From positions 160,001-224,000 of the forward strand of contig OY969414.1 in assembly GCA_963699155.1 (NCBI GenBank): 64,000 nucleotides of DNA, in the 5' to 3' direction. A program made the translations under genes and the position numbers. The stretch comes from an uncultured Chlamydiales bacterium. GTDB taxonomy: Bacteria; Chlamydiota; Chlamydiia; Chlamydiales; JAAKFR01. Below, piece by piece: positions 8,228 to 22,015 of this stretch (the stretch's first letter is position 1; each line of letters opens with the position of its first letter). The notes under the pieces are model-generated. The model was given only the letters and a program-made list of their open reading frames with translations, was not told the DNA's origin and made no database searches.

Positions 8228-9085
8228 ATGAGAAAATATCTCTATGGGTTTTTAACACTATTTGTCTGCACCACAGGCTATTCGCTCCCAGTTGGTAATC
8301 CATCTGAAGCAAGTCTTCTAACCAGTGGCGTTTGGTGGGGTCGTCATTCTGACGCTCCCTGTTTTCGTTGGTGGAATGCCTTCAGCCTACGCGCGGGATT
8401 TTATGGAGATTATGTCTTTAATCGGAATCTGAGAGTAAGACATCCCATAACTAACATTAAAAAAGTGAATGAAACAAAAATCTCCACAAGTGCAGGCTAC
8501 TTAGCACTTAATTACTATGATTGGATTGACCTCTTTGCGACATTGGGAGGATCAAAATTACAGCTTCACACAGATATCGGATCTTTTGCTAGTAGTTCTT
8601 TCATCGGAGACGTCGTCTTTTCATCCCATTTTTCTTGGAGTATTGGAGCGAGAAGCATCCTCTGGAAATGGAATTGCTTCAAAATTGGCATTGAAGGACA
8701 GTATTTTAGTACAGTCCCTTATGCAGATTATCTTGTCCGCTTCGATACTGCTGCATTGGATTATCTTGATATCAGCGATGGCCTTCCCTATTGGGAATAT
8801 CAAGTAGGTATGGGACTTTCCTATACCTTTAAAACCCGAACCCCAACCGTCGCATTTATCCCTTACATTGCGGGCAAATGGTCCAAAGGGCATTTTGAAC
8901 TGAATAAAATCAATTTTCAAGATGATGCAGGCACAACGTTTGCCTTTAAGAATCTAAGTACCAATAAAGAGTGGGGGCTTGCCGTAGGAATGACCCTCTC
9001 ATGGAAGGAGATGACTGCTGCTACTGTTGAGGGACGCTGGGGAGATGAAAAAGCGGTCTATGTCAATGGTCAATTCCGTTTTTAA
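8228..9085 (+). CDS. Chlamydial MOMP/PorB-family outer-membrane porin
   Basis: Signal peptide then LPVGNPSEASL; LRAGFYGDYVFNR; C-terminal YVNGQFRF, all typical of MOMP-like proteins. Confidence 0.85.
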   Translation: MRKYLYGFLTLFVCTTGYSLPVGNPSEASLLTSGVWWGRHSDAPCFRWWNAFSLRAGFYGDYVFNRNLRVRHPITNIKKVNETKISTSAGYLALNYYDWIDLFATLGGSKLQLHTDIGSFASSSFIGDVVFSSHFSWSIGARSILWKWNCFKIGIEGQYFSTVPYADYLVRFDTAALDYLDISDGLPYWEYQVGMGLSYTFKTRTPTVAFIPYIAGKWSKGHFELNKINFQDDAGTTFAFKNLSTNKEWGLAVGMTLSWKEMTAATVEGRWGDEKAVYVNGQFRF

Positions 9086-9902
9086 CGTTTTACTCTCTTT
9101 TTTATTTTTGCCAACAAATCTTCTGTTAGCGGATTTCAAGCTGCCATGGATCGTTTATTATAATGATCAAGCACATGCTGAGGATTTGATGCCCTATAAT
9201 CCAATCGTGCTACAAAGCCAGGATCACCCTGATTTAAAACCCCTTCTAGAGAGAGAAAAAGAGCTCCTCGGCTATCTCAATATCGGAGAGATCGATCAAA
9301 AAAGCCCTGAATTTTCTCTCCTTCAAAAAGAGGGGATCATAATTAGTGAAAATGAGAGCTGGCCAGAAAGCTATTCCATAGACATCCGTGATCCTCTTTG
9401 GAAAAAAATCATCCTTAACGATTTGATTCCTCAAATTGTTGAGCAAGGTTTTACTGGATTACTGCTAGATCAAATCGATGTTTCCCTCGCACTCGAGGAA
9501 AGCGATCCAAAAAAGTATGCAGGGATGAAAGCGGCAGCGATCGATCTTGTGCAATCGATTCATAAAGAGTTTCCAAACCTGAAATTGATGCTCAATCGTG
9601 GCTATGAAATTCTCCCTTCCGTAGGTGATTCGATTCAATACGAATTAGCCGAAGCTCTTTATAGCGAATATGACTTTAAGACAAAAAAGTACTTTGTGAT
9701 TTCAAAAGAAGAGCGCTCCCAACAGTTGACCTATCTCTATGAAGCCAGAAAAAAATTTCCCCATATTACTCTTTTCTCTCTAGATTATTGGGATCCGAAG
9801 GACAAAGAGATGTATAAAAAAATCTATGCCCTTGAACGCAAAGAGTGCATTCGTCCTTTTGTGAGCTCCGTTTGGTTAGACACGATCGTTTCAGAACCCT
9901 GA
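9060..9902 (+). CDS. Secreted endo-alpha-1,4-polygalactosaminidase-like glycoside hydrolase (GH114/PelA-hydrolase-like)
   Basis: Hydrophobic N-terminus; GYLNIGE, GFTGLLLDQID, LMLNRGYEIL, FSLDYW motifs of the GH114/GH166 TIM barrel; start uncertain (9027/9060/9066). Confidence 0.75.
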   Translation: MSMVNSVFNVLLSFLFLPTNLLLADFKLPWIVYYNDQAHAEDLMPYNPIVLQSQDHPDLKPLLEREKELLGYLNIGEIDQKSPEFSLLQKEGIIISENESWPESYSIDIRDPLWKKIILNDLIPQIVEQGFTGLLLDQIDVSLALEESDPKKYAGMKAAAIDLVQSIHKEFPNLKLMLNRGYEILPSVGDSIQYELAEALYSEYDFKTKKYFVISKEERSQQLTYLYEARKKFPHITLFSLDYWDPKDKEMYKKIYALERKECIRPFVSSVWLDTIVSEP

Positions 9903-19773: not shown

Positions 19774-22015
19774 TTAAAGCCGGCTCTTTGAGCATTACCT
19801 TTATTTCTGTGATTCTGTTGAAAGGGAGATTCCACTCTATATCTAAAATATTACCCTCACTTGTCAATTCTTTTAACTCTGTCACCTGGTTCTGACTCAT
19901 CAAAAAAACGGAATAATTGCCTGGTTGGGGCACAAACCATTTCATCTTTAATGTCTCCCAGCCTCTACTCAAAAAAGTGAATGAATGTTCTTCTCTCCTT
20001 AAATTCCATACTTCCCAGTTACTCTCAACCAGAAAAGCAGAATGAGTTGCTTGACCCTGTGAGATCGCTATAATCGGAGAGGCAATAGATGCATCCAGAT
20101 AAACGTAGGTTGATCCTTGATGTTTCTTATATCCAATGACACCGGTAGAATCTGAAAATTTGACAGTGAGATTTTCGATGTCGTCGAAACGAAAGGTTTG
20201 TAATCCCTTACGATTGCGAATCCTCCAGGTGGAATCGGCGATAAGATCTATTTCAGTTGTTACGAAACCTTCTACAATTTCACAGAACCGAGATGGAAAA
20301 ATCGATATATGTGGTTGCGACCTTACAAAATCTAGGATCGTTAAAATAGCTTTCAAGCTTGATGCAAACTCGCCAGAATAACTGTGATAGTAAATAAGCA
20401 TAGGTTTGACACGCCTGGGAGTTTCAGTATTTTTCAGCGTATCAATCAATAGCGTAAACCTGTAAAAATCCTTCTGCCATTCATAGGTATATTCGTTCTC
20501 ACCATTTGAGGAATTATAGGGTTGAATCCATCCCACAGACCTTCTCACAGTAGGCCCGACAAAAAGATAGGAGGGATACTCCTCATCAAAGCGAGCCCAA
20601 CCAATACCCAAATTTTTTACACCTGCCTTATGGCAAAGCTCTAAAGCTTCCCCCCATACTTGCCCATCTCCGCTCCATAACAGGGATTTCACTTGATTAT
20701 CTTTTGGAGCTAGCTGGTTAAGGAAGTCAATGGATCCTCCAATCTCTTTTTCCAGAGAAAAAGGTTCGTTGGCATAGGCTCTTGGCGTTACATATCCTAC
20801 ACCGATTTCTTCTTCAAATTTCACATGATTCCACCACTCATTATATTTGGCATGCAGCCAACTTAGATAACTATTTTGCCAGGTAGGATAGCGATAGCGA
20901 TAGAGGTAATCGATTTCGAGATCTTTTCCATTCCGACCAGGAGCAAAAAAATCCCAAGAAAAGGGATGGCTATAAGTATGAGAGCAGGCTTCCACCTGAG
21001 GTTGCAGAAAATATTCTTTTGCCACTTCCTGGCTTTTGTTTTTTGCTTCCCAATGAGGATCTACATCAGCCGCAATGATCCCCATTCCCAAAGGAAAATC
21101 AGGATTTGTTTTTACGACCTTTTCCAGCAGCACTTTCGAAGAATAGACCTCTTCCTCACCCTGAAACTCCTCCAGCGAAGTTTCAATGTTGAAACCATCT
21201 CCGTGACAGATGTGATAAAAGATGCGTTTGCCTGCAAGGGTGGTCGTATCAGGAATCGGCATTGTCTTGAGATCGAGTGCTAATCTGAAAAACAAAAAAG
21301 GGTTTATATACCAGGCTGCCTCTCGAGGATTTTCAGACGAGAGTCTAAAGCTATTTTCAAAGCCTGGGCTGACATAAGCGCCATTGGGACTAATAATGAT
21401 GAGATCTGCGCTGCTTTCAGAATCATCGGGAATACCTACTTTTAAATAAGAGCGCGCTTCATCGCTTATGATTCGAGAGATTTCGAATTCCGGTAACTTT
21501 TTTGGAAATTGTTTCTCAAAATTACAGAGGTTGCTGTCTTCAAATAATATTTTGTAATCAAATGGAAATAAAACCATTTTTCCCGTTTTTTCAAACCCAA
21601 TTTTCTCATAAACAGTACTGATCATTTCCAATGGGGTGGTCTTCCCCTGTCGATCGGCAAGAAATCCAGGATTCCCTAGAAGAAGAACTTTTTTCCCTCC
21701 ATCCATCGCATCGATTAACCACTCAATGACATTTTCAGGATTTTTCCATTCGGAGTTGGTGGACAGATTCATCAAAATTCCTACGATACCATCATCTCCA
21801 GAAAGTTTGGGAAGGGGGTCTTTAATATCGTGATAAATGACATCGATGCCGAGATAGTTTAGAGCCATTTCTAGCGTGATATGGACTTCATTTTCTTCGA
21901 TTGTCTCAATTTTGGTGTCCAAAAACGCAAGAATTTTTCGAGCCACGATCGGCTCTGCTTGCAGGCTGATCGTTTGAATCAAAAAGCCAAATAATAAAAA
22001 ACTTAGCGTTCTCAT
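19760..22015 (-). CDS. pelA: PelA-like polysaccharide deacetylase lacking the N-terminal hydrolase domain
   Basis: Signal peptide MRTLSFLLF; W.INPF.FFR.AL...PIPDTTT..GKRI....GDGF; SHTYSHPF.W; WSGD; TETPRR.KP...YYH.YSG. Confidence 0.75.
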   Translation of the reverse strand: MRTLSFLLFGFLIQTISLQAEPIVARKILAFLDTKIETIEENEVHITLEMALNYLGIDVIYHDIKDPLPKLSGDDGIVGILMNLSTNSEWKNPENVIEWLIDAMDGGKKVLLLGNPGFLADRQGKTTPLEMISTVYEKIGFEKTGKMVLFPFDYKILFEDSNLCNFEKQFPKKLPEFEISRIISDEARSYLKVGIPDDSESSADLIIISPNGAYVSPGFENSFRLSSENPREAAWYINPFLFFRLALDLKTMPIPDTTTLAGKRIFYHICHGDGFNIETSLEEFQGEEEVYSSKVLLEKVVKTNPDFPLGMGIIAADVDPHWEAKNKSQEVAKEYFLQPQVEACSHTYSHPFSWDFFAPGRNGKDLEIDYLYRYRYPTWQNSYLSWLHAKYNEWWNHVKFEEEIGVGYVTPRAYANEPFSLEKEIGGSIDFLNQLAPKDNQVKSLLWSGDGQVWGEALELCHKAGVKNLGIGWARFDEEYPSYLFVGPTVRRSVGWIQPYNSSNGENEYTYEWQKDFYRFTLLIDTLKNTETPRRVKPMLIYYHSYSGEFASSLKAILTILDFVRSQPHISIFPSRFCEIVEGFVTTEIDLIADSTWRIRNRKGLQTFRFDDIENLTVKFSDSTGVIGYKKHQGSTYVYLDASIASPIIAISQGQATHSAFLVESNWEVWNLRREEHSFTFLSRGWETLKMKWFVPQPGNYSVFLMSQNQVTELKELTSEGNILDIEWNLPFNRITEIKVMLKEPALNARQ

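Follow-up and report, generated by a model that had tools for sequence, protein, structure and literature searches.

A probably functional Pel-type exopolysaccharide locus in an uncultured host-dependent chlamydia

A 64,000-nucleotide stretch of the genome of an uncultured soil Chlamydiales bacterium (contig OY969414.1 of assembly GCA_963699155.1; hereafter the window) contains, at 9027-22048, a pel locus of seven unbroken, closely spaced minus-strand genes and one convergent plus-strand gene, in which every Pel function but PelC is represented, namely the PelA deacetylase-type part and hydrolase, the PelB TPR scaffold and porin, PelD, a putative PelE, PelF and PelG. From our point of view, it is likely that these genes make up a synthase-dependent Pel-type exopolysaccharide system that works in a host-dependent environmental chlamydia, with c-di-GMP probably acting as the switch; the locus is a real and probably functional version of an established system, met in a lifestyle where it was not expected. 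To our knowledge, all chlamydiae in culture are obligately intracellular, chlamydiae are not regarded as producers of biofilm or exopolysaccharide, and the textbook picture of Chlamydia does without c-di-GMP signalling. An intact pel operon that is core in two families represents a testable candidate for the survival, aggregation or attachment of environmental chlamydiae outside the host cell.

Locus layout and genomic context

The host genome is a single closed contig of 2.40 Mb that is 100% complete. That it is chlamydial, as a preceding sequence-only reading had stated, is borne out by a gene of the Chlam_OMP family (MOMP-like) and by two TLC ATP/ADP translocases (6e-229 and 2.7e-187), the latter also indicating host dependence. 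The pel genes and the basis of their assignment are:

22048..19760, minus strand: pelA_DA, 762 aa (PDB PelA sequence match)
19773..16978, minus strand: pelB TPR part, 931 aa (TPR families and homology to fused PelB ORFs)
16987..15287, minus strand: pelB outer-membrane part, 566 aa (AF2 fold match)
15284..13887, minus strand: pelD, 465 aa (AF2 fold match)
13881..12814, minus strand: putative pelE, 355 aa (position and BLASTP)
12842..11346, minus strand: pelF, 498 aa (NF038011, DUF3492)
11336..9891, minus strand: pelG, 481 aa (PF16933)
9027..9902, plus strand: pelA_H, stand-alone hydrolase, 291 aa (PF03537 and PDB PelA)

The ORF list agrees with the earlier description of seven co-oriented, overlapping or abutting frames and a convergent hydrolase: adjacent minus-strand ORFs share no more than 29 nt, or else leave gaps of no more than 9 nt (the porin gene of pelB and the pelD gene lie 2 nt apart), the 3' ends of pelA_H and pelG overlap by 12 nt, and all eight ORFs are stop-free over more than 4,300 codons in total. 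The locus is also, as had been noticed, AT-richer than its surroundings, with 40.07% GC compared to 47.51% for the whole genome, a value as low being found in 0.75% of 2387 sliding 13-kb windows of this genome. Its GC3 of 0.35-0.41 is strongly atypical, which could also reflect weak expression.

On one side, pel is flanked by PIT, a PhoU-like gene and oppDF. The opp and pit genes named as flanks by the sequence-only reading are thus found on this side, whereas the other side is occupied by a MOMP-like gene and SDR sugar-nucleotide genes, which form a variable block (4621..9085, plus strand, assigned by family models) that is possibly linked to Pel:

4621-5961, plus strand: NDP-sugar dehydrogenase (TIGR03026, 1.6e-112)
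6137-7141, plus strand: SDR epimerase/dehydratase (PF01370; the two SDR genes match at 1.2e-50 and 7.9e-34)
7183-8088, plus strand: SDR epimerase/dehydratase (PF01370, as above)
8228-9085, plus strand: MOMP-like gene (PF01308, 4e-35)

The dehydrogenase is of the N-acetylhexosamine type (UDP-ManNAc dehydrogenase model 4.9e-69, TviB 3.3e-64). A UDP-GlcNAc 4-epimerase could not be firmly identified. The SDR neighbour encoded at 6137-7141, which matches UDP-glucuronate decarboxylases (4e-40) and 6wjb/6wj9 (1.9e-34), lies at least as near to these decarboxylases. In the congener G322 the block is wholly missing and a GT90 gene takes the place of pel. The GC3 of the MOMP-like gene is as low as that of pel, whereas the GC of the sugar genes is genome-like and unlike that of pel, suggesting a separate history.

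A chimeric contig, as considered in the sequence-only reading, or a binning error that brought in pel DNA from another bacterium, is highly improbable. The GC drop relative to the flanks and the loose ends of short metagenome contigs at 22163-22245, within the pelA-PIT spacer, could be read in this way, but the assembly is a single closed and complete contig, pel also lies beside PIT and a PhoU-like gene in G147 and G324, two further assemblies from this family, a chlamydia-specific MOMP-like gene of equally low GC3 is situated inside the block, and the PelF clade of the window (clade A, see below) holds chlamydiae only.

Synthase and probable c-di-GMP circuit

The Pel-type identity of the locus is supported by family models, PDB sequence matches and folds. 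PelF, by its sequence a cytosolic GT4 glycosyltransferase and the predicted polymerase, covers NF038011 completely (6.9e-110; 368 bits vs. a cut-off of 100; profile 1-489 of 489) and also matches DUF3492 (PF11997, 9.5e-63) and Glycos_transf_1. PelG, a predicted polytopic inner-membrane protein, matches PF16933 (4.4e-99; 332.8 bits vs. a cut-off of 29; profile 1-451 of 452). The putative PelE, with N-terminal membrane helices and a helical-repeat C-terminus, has no Pfam or NCBIfam family, its atlas neighbours are hypothetical proteins with TPR/HEAT, and in nearly all of 109 pel loci compared, the ORF that separates pelD from pelF is among its BLASTP matches (19-50% identity).

Sequence profiles fail to reach P. 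aeruginosa PelD, and the GAF_3 match of the window PelD (5.9e-4) is under cut-off. The AF2 model (pLDDT 83.6) matches the P. aeruginosa PelD structures 4etz, 4etx, 4eu0, 4dmz, 4euv and 4dn0 (E 5.6e-8 to 1.8e-6). PelD comprises membrane helices, a long helix, a GAF domain and a degenerate GGDEF-like domain with R401-x-x-D404, which in the model is placed at the I-site position, right after a helix and ahead of the GGDEF-like beta-hairpin. Of 13 non-chlamydial PelDs chosen for comparison, nine have [LF]RxxD in this column.

The window genome carries a single GGDEF gene (1.8e-37), encoding a REC-GGDEF cyclase (TIGR00254, 138 bits vs. a cut-off of 37.4) with intact RxxD and GGDEF motifs and situated downstream of a histidine kinase gene with a 4-nt overlap, and a single HD-GYP gene (GAF-HD-GYP, motif HHExxDGxGYP); EAL and PilZ were not found in this genome. 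Since a GGDEF match is present in 20/22 genomes of the family and PelG in 3/22, the cyclase is not dedicated to Pel. It is conceivable, if doubtful, that Pel synthesis in the window organism is independent of c-di-GMP and that PelD is merely structural, as it necessarily would be in most chlamydial pel operons: among 31 chlamydial PelD rows, 21 are full-length without the RxxD Arg, six are short and lack the GGDEF-like domain and one is a fragment, and 21/30 Pel-bearing Chlamydiota genomes have no GGDEF match. However, RxxD is kept in the window, G147 and G324, the REC-GGDEF protein is widespread in this family and the window genome has its HD-GYP gene as well. We favour a PelD that probably responds to c-di-GMP.

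PelA, PelB and the probable export route

PelA is distributed over two genes. The 762-aa product of pelA_DA, which has an internal Met followed by a signal peptide and no Pfam family match, aligns with residues about 246-850 of the PelA chain 9cgy (1.9e-46) and consequently represents the non-hydrolase part only, with reductase-like, CE21 deacetylase and beta-rich parts. The missing hydrolase domain is encoded by pelA_H, whose product carries a signal peptide and matches PF03537 (GH114, 9.3e-15) and the hydrolase domain of PelA in the PDB (9cgy, 1.6e-19; 5tcb, 6.5e-18). Its D148 and E209 align with the catalytic Asp/Glu pair of P. aeruginosa PelA, presumably D160 and E218 (residue names from PMC12022489, numbering offset by count).

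The MT1 motif of the deacetylase reads H-I-C-H-G-D. The metal ligands D284, H357 and H361 are kept, as are E517 and the acid His, H555, whereas His282 takes the position of the catalytic-base Asp and Ile280 that of the activating His (roles of the base Asp, Asp-His-His metal triad, Glu and acid His as given in PMC12022489). Because the D517A exchange at the position of PtPelA equivalent to His282 abolished esterase activity (PMC12022489), the polymer may remain acetylated or undergo different processing. His occurs at the base position in 7/60 aligned PelA_DA rows, all of them from chlamydial clade A, which indicates a conserved rather than a random variant.

One could thus imagine a real system whose polymer differs from canonical Pel, being fully N-acetylated and/or containing another sugar supplied by the adjacent genes. 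We regard this as rather unlikely: in addition to the conserved His, the N-acetylhexosamine-type dehydrogenase and the two SDR genes of the variable block and an SDR homologue that abuts pelB in G147 would be in line with it, but the matches of PelF and PelG to the Pel models are full-length, neither the remaining residues of the deacetylase nor those of the hydrolase, which are of the GalNAc-specific type, have changed, and the sugar genes differ from pel in GC.

PelB, composed of a TPR scaffold and an outer-membrane barrel, is likewise present as two genes. The 931-aa TPR part has an N-terminal membrane anchor, matches TPR_14 (5.5e-16) and TPR_19 (1.4e-15) and is homologous to the N-terminal two thirds of the PelB ORFs that other chlamydial pel operons encode in fused form (~1300 aa); a PDB sequence search with it gave no useful match. 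The 566-aa part (AF2 model, mean pLDDT 86.1) comprises a signal peptide, a small beta domain, an alpha-rich region and a 16-strand barrel. Among PDB folds, the model comes closest to PelB as seen in the PelBC transporter (chain 9h80_M; E 3.3e-13, target TM 0.70), with BcsC and PgaA next.

With a PelC profile that matches the PDB PelC at 4.4e-14, no PelC was found in the complete genome at E <= 1, and the earlier description of the Pel machinery as apparently complete was consequently too strong. PelC, which in Pel systems is a lipoprotein of the outer membrane that assembles as a dodecamer, has been reported to be necessary for export in P. aeruginosa (cited in PMC12022489), and its absence from a 100%-complete genome counts against working Pel export.

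Distribution and probable origin

Far from being a singular chlamydial oddity, as it had appeared from one genome, Pel recurs in the phylum: PelG exceeds the Pfam cut-off in 30/401 sampled Chlamydiota species genomes (about 7%, or roughly one in thirteen). These represent 14 or more family codes, and in two of the families nearly every genome has PelG (f4, 5/5; f16, 4/5). Gene order is mostly shared, being conserved in at least 20 Chlamydiota genomes besides that of the window. None of the 30 sampled genomes of a small-genome family of Chlamydia-like size has Pel above cut-off, so that there is no direct medical angle. The literature searched, including term look-ups within papers, holds no mention of Pel in chlamydiae, in agreement with the earlier statement; chlamydial PelF is already labelled as such in NCBI annotation.

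The suggested PelF phylogeny places the window within clade A, a group of nine rows (SH-aLRT 99) that holds chlamydiae only and mixes families, and the nearest non-chlamydial relatives fall in a 51-row set (SH-aLRT 99). In G147 and G324, pel is also AT-richer than its own flanks, while 9/11 other chlamydial pel loci lie within 0.02 GC of theirs, with one 2.2 and one 5.3 points richer. Horizontal acquisition, as proposed before, is plausible for the lineage of the window, given the low GC, the absence of pel from the same site in G322 and the nesting in the family-mixing clade A; these same observations favour a chlamydial rather than a free-living donor.

It is improbable that pel was imported recently and is carried along, silent or decaying, without a role in this organism. 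Points in favour of such a passenger are the atypical GC3, the patchy occurrence within genus and family (PelD matches in 5/29 family genomes in a whole-genome protein search), the fragmented operon of G234 and the altered deacetylase base. These are opposed by the eight stop-free ORFs, by the conservation of the His variant across seven clade-A genomes and by the orthologous operon of G147, which at 37-68% protein identity still has all eight genes as long ORFs of matching length (for its PelD, the whole-genome protein search counted one TAA inside the match; the ORF call there is 459 aa).

Proposed mechanism

Judged by the homologues of Pseudomonas aeruginosa, the inner-membrane synthase would be formed by PelD, PelE, PelF and PelG, with PelF polymerising a UDP-N-acetylhexosamine; GalNAc is the sugar polymerised in known Pel systems, whose typical product is alpha-1,4-linked GalNAc that has been deacetylated in part to GalN. 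The chain would pass to the periplasmic PelA deacetylase-type protein docked on the TPR protein and leave through the 16-strand porin, a PelB-type protein of its own that has no PelC ring, and the secreted stand-alone hydrolase may trim or free the polymer. Activity would probably be switched by c-di-GMP at the retained RxxD site of PelD, made by the single REC-GGDEF cyclase under its sensor histidine kinase and removed by the single GAF-HD-GYP enzyme. In the genus of the window, pel occupies a glycan hotspot of variable content that lies between oppC and PIT and which it probably reached from another, AT-richer chlamydia.

Of the candidate roles put forward in the sequence-only reading, which include an elementary-body coat, an adhesin and an inclusion matrix, we favour that of a coat or an adhesin, acting while the organism is extracellular. 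One could further speculate, although we consider it unlikely as a whole, that such a coat has been rewired twice: most lineages would have lost the I-site and, having no cyclase, freed the synthase from c-di-GMP, while in the clade of the window the Asp to His exchange in the deacetylase would yield a differently modified polymer. Within clade A, only the family of the window keeps RxxD in PelD and a minimal kinase-cyclase-HD-GYP-PelD circuit. If this reading is true, the circuit might couple the timing of coat production to the developmental cycle.

Comparison with known Pel systems

Apart from PelC, the seven functions of the P. aeruginosa pelABCDEFG operon are common to both systems (putatively so for PelE), as is the gene order A-B-D-E-F-G. 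The window counterparts of PelF and PelG are full-length, and the systems share the GAF and degenerate GGDEF fold and RxxD of PelD (4dn0), the PelB TPR part and 16-strand porin of the PelBC transporter (9h80), and the hydrolase and deacetylase folds of PelA with most catalytic residues (9cgy/5tcb). In contrast to P. aeruginosa, PelA is split, with the hydrolase gene convergent at the far end, the TPR and porin parts of PelB have separate genes, PelC is missing from the whole genome, the deacetylase base Asp is replaced by His, and the bearer, a host-dependent chlamydia, encodes only a single cyclase and a single HD-GYP protein.

PelC-less pel operons with a split PelA, i.e. a separate GH114-type gene followed by a pelA_DA gene of ~740-800 aa, are also found in uncultured Alphaproteobacteria (MAGs titled Rickettsiales, Azospirillum and others), Acidobacteriota and Lambdaproteobacteria (loci L063-L140), which include the nearest non-chlamydial PelF relatives. 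These loci mostly have no ORF between pelB and pelD, and PelB is split in several of them; they differ from the window in the canonical H-x-D-x-D deacetylase motif, and most of their PelDs have RxxD. We know of no operon of this type that has been characterised experimentally.

A separate PelA_DA without hydrolase domain is also encoded by pelDEA_DAFG of Bacillus cereus ATCC 10987, where PelD is described as a c-di-GMP receptor (PMC7112194). This Gram-positive operon differs in that it has no outer-membrane PelB and other PelD and PelE lineages, whereas that of the chlamydia is Gram-negative in type.

Chlamydial Pel clade B (e.g. f4 and f16), from the same phylum, shares gene order, the split PelA and the lack of PelC with the window but has a fused PelB (~1300 aa), a PelD without the RxxD Arg and a deacetylase that retains Asp. 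No GGDEF match is present in 18/20 clade-B genomes (one of the others has a weak and one a strong match), and the seven clade-B loci compared lie within about 0.02 GC of their flanks. For Pel biology in general, the chlamydial pel loci offer natural experiments on PelC-less export, on PelD with and without a c-di-GMP site and on a conserved His-for-Asp deacetylase.

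Results

A Pel-type operon in an environmental chlamydia

The window lies in a single contig of 2,399,326 bases (100% complete, 2.28% contamination). Since a Chlam_OMP-family gene (4e-35) adjoins the pel locus and the genome encodes a pair of TLC-type nucleotide translocases (6e-229 and 2.7e-187), the genome is chlamydial, and the host, an as yet uncultured environmental chlamydia, bears the hallmark of an energy parasite. Seven ORFs run along the minus strand from 22048 to 9891, with neighbours overlapping by at most 29 nt or leaving gaps of no more than 9 nt, and an eighth gene faces them:

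Genes of the pel locus and the basis of their identification
19760-22048, minus strand, first of the set: pelA_DA, PelA without hydrolase domain, 762 aa (PDB match)
minus strand, second: pelB, TPR part, 931 aa (TPR families)
minus strand, third: pelB, porin part, 566 aa (fold match)
minus strand, fourth: pelD, 465 aa (fold match)
minus strand, fifth: pelE, 355 aa (homology by position in pel loci)
minus strand, sixth: pelF, 498 aa (NF038011)
minus strand, last: pelG, 481 aa (PF16933)
9027-9902, plus strand: pelA_H, stand-alone PelA-type hydrolase, 291 aa, convergent with pelG (GH114 and PDB PelA)

The stop codons of pelA_H and pelG lie 12 nt inside each other. Curated models name only PelF (NF038011, E 6.9e-110; 368 bits against a cut-off of 100) and PelG (PF16933, E 4.4e-99, full profile covered) outright, and the remaining products were identified through PDB or fold evidence. 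The pelA_H product matches GH114 (9.3e-15) and, among PDB entries, the PelA hydrolase domain of 9cgy (1.6e-19) and 5tcb (6.5e-18). The 762-aa product matches no Pfam family, and a PDB sequence search aligned it with chain residues ~246-850 of PelA 9cgy (E 1.9e-46); it thus represents PelA minus the hydrolase domain, and given the separate hydrolase gene PelA is therefore split in two genes.

PelB is split as well, since its TPR region and its porin are separate products. The former (931 aa) is a TPR protein by Pfam, for which the PDB sequence search returned designed TPRs only, and the latter (566 aa) found no sequence match in Pfam, the NCBI models or the PDB sequence search. Its AlphaFold model (23-sequence alignment, pLDDT 86.1) predicts a signal peptide, a small beta domain, an alpha-rich region and a 16-strand barrel, and the top PDB fold is 9h80_M, the PelB chain of the PelBC transporter (E 3.3e-13, TM 0.70 on target), with cellulose and PNAG porins as runners-up. 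For PelD, the model (pLDDT 83.6) predicts membrane helices, a long helix, a GAF domain and a GGDEF-like domain, and the fold search recovered, besides other GAF-GGDEF proteins, six entries for PelD of P. aeruginosa (E 5.6e-8 to 1.8e-6); PDB PelD was reached in this way only, and neither by phmmer nor by an 18-sequence profile. No curated family exists for PelE, whose homologues (19-50% identity) are encoded between pelD and pelF in almost all of 109 compared pel loci.

The assignment of these ORFs to Pel, proposed from the sequence-only reading, is thereby borne out by family models for PelF and PelG and by PDB or fold matches for PelA, the PelB porin and PelD. We conclude that the locus is a real, intact Pel-type operon, which is probably functional. 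Its earlier description as 'apparently complete' holds for the other Pel parts and fails for PelC: the porin gene and pelD are only 2 nt apart, and a profile built from five small ORFs between pelB and pelD of alphaproteobacterial loci, which matched PDB PelC at 4.4e-14, gave no match at E <= 1 in the complete genome. Most of the closest operons outside the chlamydiae likewise have no such ORF separating pelB from pelD.

Distribution and phylogeny of chlamydial Pel

The sequence-only reading knew of no Pel system described in Chlamydiota. In a survey of 401 sampled Chlamydiota species genomes with the PelG family model, 30 scored above the cut-off, and 33 genomes from 26 of the 212 genera matched at E <= 0.001, so that the locus is not unique.

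PelG matches by chlamydial family (matching genomes of all sampled)
f4: 5 of 5
f16: 4 of 5
f5: 5 of 46
f1, the family of the window, its own genome left out: 3 of 22
f6: 3 of 69
f9: 3 of 90
f3 (small genomes): 1 of 30, below cut-off only

All 29 other Pel loci were compared. Where the contig allows, they usually read GH114-pelA_DA-pelB-D-E-F-G; PelB is split in some and a fused protein of ~1300 aa in others. In non-chlamydial loci, too, a split PelA and a split PelB are frequent. Single loci depart from this order. G324, a genome of another genus of f1, has a tandem pair of PelA_DA genes (L032 12542-17018), and in G379 a single long open frame, preceded by an N-terminal fragment of PelF, encodes both PelF and PelG (L034 2971-5839). 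PelB and PelD are in pieces in G234 (L043 7401-12058), whose sequence has ambiguous bases, the fragmentation being due to decay or assembly errors, and in G239 (L049) PelG is the only pel gene found in the 20 kb analysed. The nearest orthologues of the window's Pel proteins are only 37-68% identical, and synonymous sites would hence be saturated.

The PelF tree (105 rows, IQ-TREE, LG+C20 PMSF, quick search, SH-aLRT support only) leaves out the short rows L034 and L137 and the duplicates L061 and L100. In this tree, the window and its congener G147 group with a support of 100 inside clade A, which comprises nine rows, all chlamydial, from the mixed families f1, f5, f6 and f9 (support 99) and has G324 as its sister (94). 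A second, more weakly supported group B (91) holds 20 other chlamydial rows and one Lambdaproteobacteria MAG, and a 51-row set (99) encloses both clades together with MAGs of Alphaproteobacteria, several of which carry Rickettsiales in their title. By parsimony count, the chlamydial label requires two changes on the ML tree. Recent horizontal acquisition from a free-living source does not fit the window's clade, as PelF is nested among chlamydial sequences only; a long-standing presence in the phylum followed by many losses fits, and so does exchange between chlamydiae. Among the nearest non-chlamydial operons are MAGs titled Rickettsiales or Candidatus Odyssella (L063, L070, L071, L081, L102, L119), groups that include other protist-associated bacteria.

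Composition, site and junctions

The locus was correctly described as AT-richer than its surroundings: its GC content is 40.07% compared to 47.51% for the genome, and such a low value is reached in only 0.75% of 2387 windows of 13 kb. GC3 is 0.35-0.41 in the pel genes and 0.47-0.64 in PIT, the PhoU-like gene, oppDF and two SDR genes; that of the MOMP-like gene is also low (0.37). Other equally AT-rich 13-kb windows occur only at ~640-680 kb, 1,100 kb and 1,180-1,220 kb of the contig. The pel loci of G147 and G324 are AT-richer than their own flanks as well, and of 11 other chlamydial loci nine differ from their flanks by no more than 0.02 GC, with L062 being 5.3 points and one further locus 2.2 points richer.

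In both G147 and G324, pel likewise adjoins PIT and the PhoU-like gene. The order in G324 is canonical (GH114-pelA_DA(x2)-pelB-B-D-E-F-G), and the block of pelA_H and pelB to pelG is inverted in G147 relative to the window, which accounts for the odd convergent hydrolase gene. G147 carries a second, divergent GH114-like gene (L061; 262 aa, 25% identity) between PIT and pelA_DA, in the canonical pelA_H position, where the window has a 208-bp spacer only; a 106-aa ORF (22093-22413) is found in the window's pelA-PIT spacer.

The chimeric contig that had been considered is contradicted by the closed contig and by the same PIT/PhoU-like neighbourhood in the independent G147 and G324 assemblies. In the congener G322 (96% complete), neither PelG nor PelD was found, and the corresponding site holds oppC, a GT90 glycosyltransferase gene (L150 6641-7894) and PIT. 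Because GT90 occupies this site, we regard 4.4-22.25 kb of the window as a variable glycan block, containing an NDP-sugar dehydrogenase, two SDR genes, a MOMP-like gene and pel. In its 4621-9085 part, the nearest models of the dehydrogenase are UDP-ManNAc dehydrogenase and TviB, and the two SDR genes are of the epimerase/dehydratase type, next to the MOMP-like gene with its pel-like GC3. No PelX-type UDP-GlcNAc 4-epimerase was firmly identified: for the SDR gene at 6137-7141, the candidate considered, UDP-glucuronate decarboxylases outscore 6wjb/6wj9.

Three DNA runs from a single soil-metagenome study, which may include the source sample, matched in small shares (0.19, 0.13 and 0.08). Their contigs are short, 99-100% identical and scattered inside pel and in the flanks, with parts uncovered; none bridges the junctions at 9.0 kb and 22.2 kb, which decides nothing either way. 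Three contig loose ends at 22163-22245, in the pelA-PIT spacer, run off into unlike sequence, which hints at strain variation at the block edge. The single promoter-like site from a promoter/terminator scan of 21900-22400 does not exceed the yield of shuffled sequences, no tRNA gene as integration site was found within 1-30000, and no RNA dataset turned up for the locus in a search of public runs.

Catalytic residues of PelA

According to PMC12022489, the deacetylase of P. aeruginosa PelA uses D528 as base, D530, H600 and H604 as metal ligands, E723, and H761 as acid (H750 in the numbering of PtPelA), and the PtPelA variants D517A, D519A, H589A and H593A have no esterase activity. With an offset of 36 from chain 9cgy to native numbering, which fits both motifs, the window's pelA_DA product retains D284, H357, H361, E517 and H555 and has His282 in place of the base and Ile280 in place of the activating His; its MT1 motif (residues 279-284) reads H-I-C-H-G-D instead of S-H-I-D-G-D. 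Of 60 aligned PelA_DA rows, 52 have Asp in the base column, seven have His and one has Glu. All seven His rows belong to clade A, of which another member (G371) has Asp, and by this alignment the His-for-Asp deacetylase is a conserved variant. The hydrolase PelA_H retains D148 and E209, by our count D160 and E218 of P. aeruginosa PelA.

A minimal c-di-GMP circuit

The window's genome has exactly one GGDEF match (1.8e-37), a 300-aa REC-GGDEF protein with RKHD five residues ahead of an intact GGDEF motif, whose gene overlaps that of an upstream sensor histidine kinase by 4 nt (contig ~1,097,849-1,099,821; L051). Neither EAL nor PilZ domains were found in the genome, and the sole HD-GYP gene (~2,039,713-2,041,293; L144) encodes an N-terminal GAF-like region and the motif HHERVDGKGYP.

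In the PelD model, R401-T-V-D404 lies right behind a helix and ahead of a hairpin of the GGDEF-like domain, which we take to be the canonical I-site place of GGDEF domains. Since related genomes are not independent, no statistical claim is attached to the following PelD and GGDEF counts. PelD was realigned for 31 chlamydial rows and 13 non-chlamydial rows, the latter hand-picked from ~75. Nine of the 13 have [LF]RxxD, one lacks the motif and three are short or unalignable at this column, whereas RxxD is kept in only three of the 31 chlamydial rows (window, G147 and G324); 21 are full-length with the Arg lost, six are short forms without the GGDEF-like domain and one is a fragment. Among the 30 Pel-bearing genomes, a GGDEF match is absent in 21 (E <= 0.001), strong in five and weak in four. 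Because of this pattern of RxxD retention and GGDEF counts, the window's Pel system is plausibly c-di-GMP-gated, whereas most chlamydial Pel systems probably are not. The cyclase itself is not Pel-specific, as 20 of the 22 f1 genomes encode one and only three PelG; with the cyclase in nearly all genomes of the family and Pel in few, another c-di-GMP target must exist there.

Discussion

Full-text searches found no paper linking Pel to chlamydiae. In the parts available of the pel operon survey PMC7112194, the PelA study PMC12022489, the epsSMASH preprint (10.64898/2025.12.21.693542), PMC9816063, PMC8242063 and the preprint 10.1101/2024.11.28.625222, chlamydial Pel is not mentioned; Chlamydiota may figure in their phylum tables. 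In public annotation, the label 'GT4 family glycosyltransferase PelF [Chlamydiae bacterium]' is already in use. Within these sources, the initial remark that no Pel system had been described in Chlamydiota stands, and Pel across the phylum is, as far as could be found, undescribed in print.

The Pel operon occurs in a host-dependent chlamydia alongside a minimal c-di-GMP circuit. As to its role, we can only infer that it might provide a coat, an adhesin or a means of aggregation for an extracellular stage. Overall, the operon is a variant of the known system, with PelA and PelB each split, no PelC and a His-variant deacetylase.
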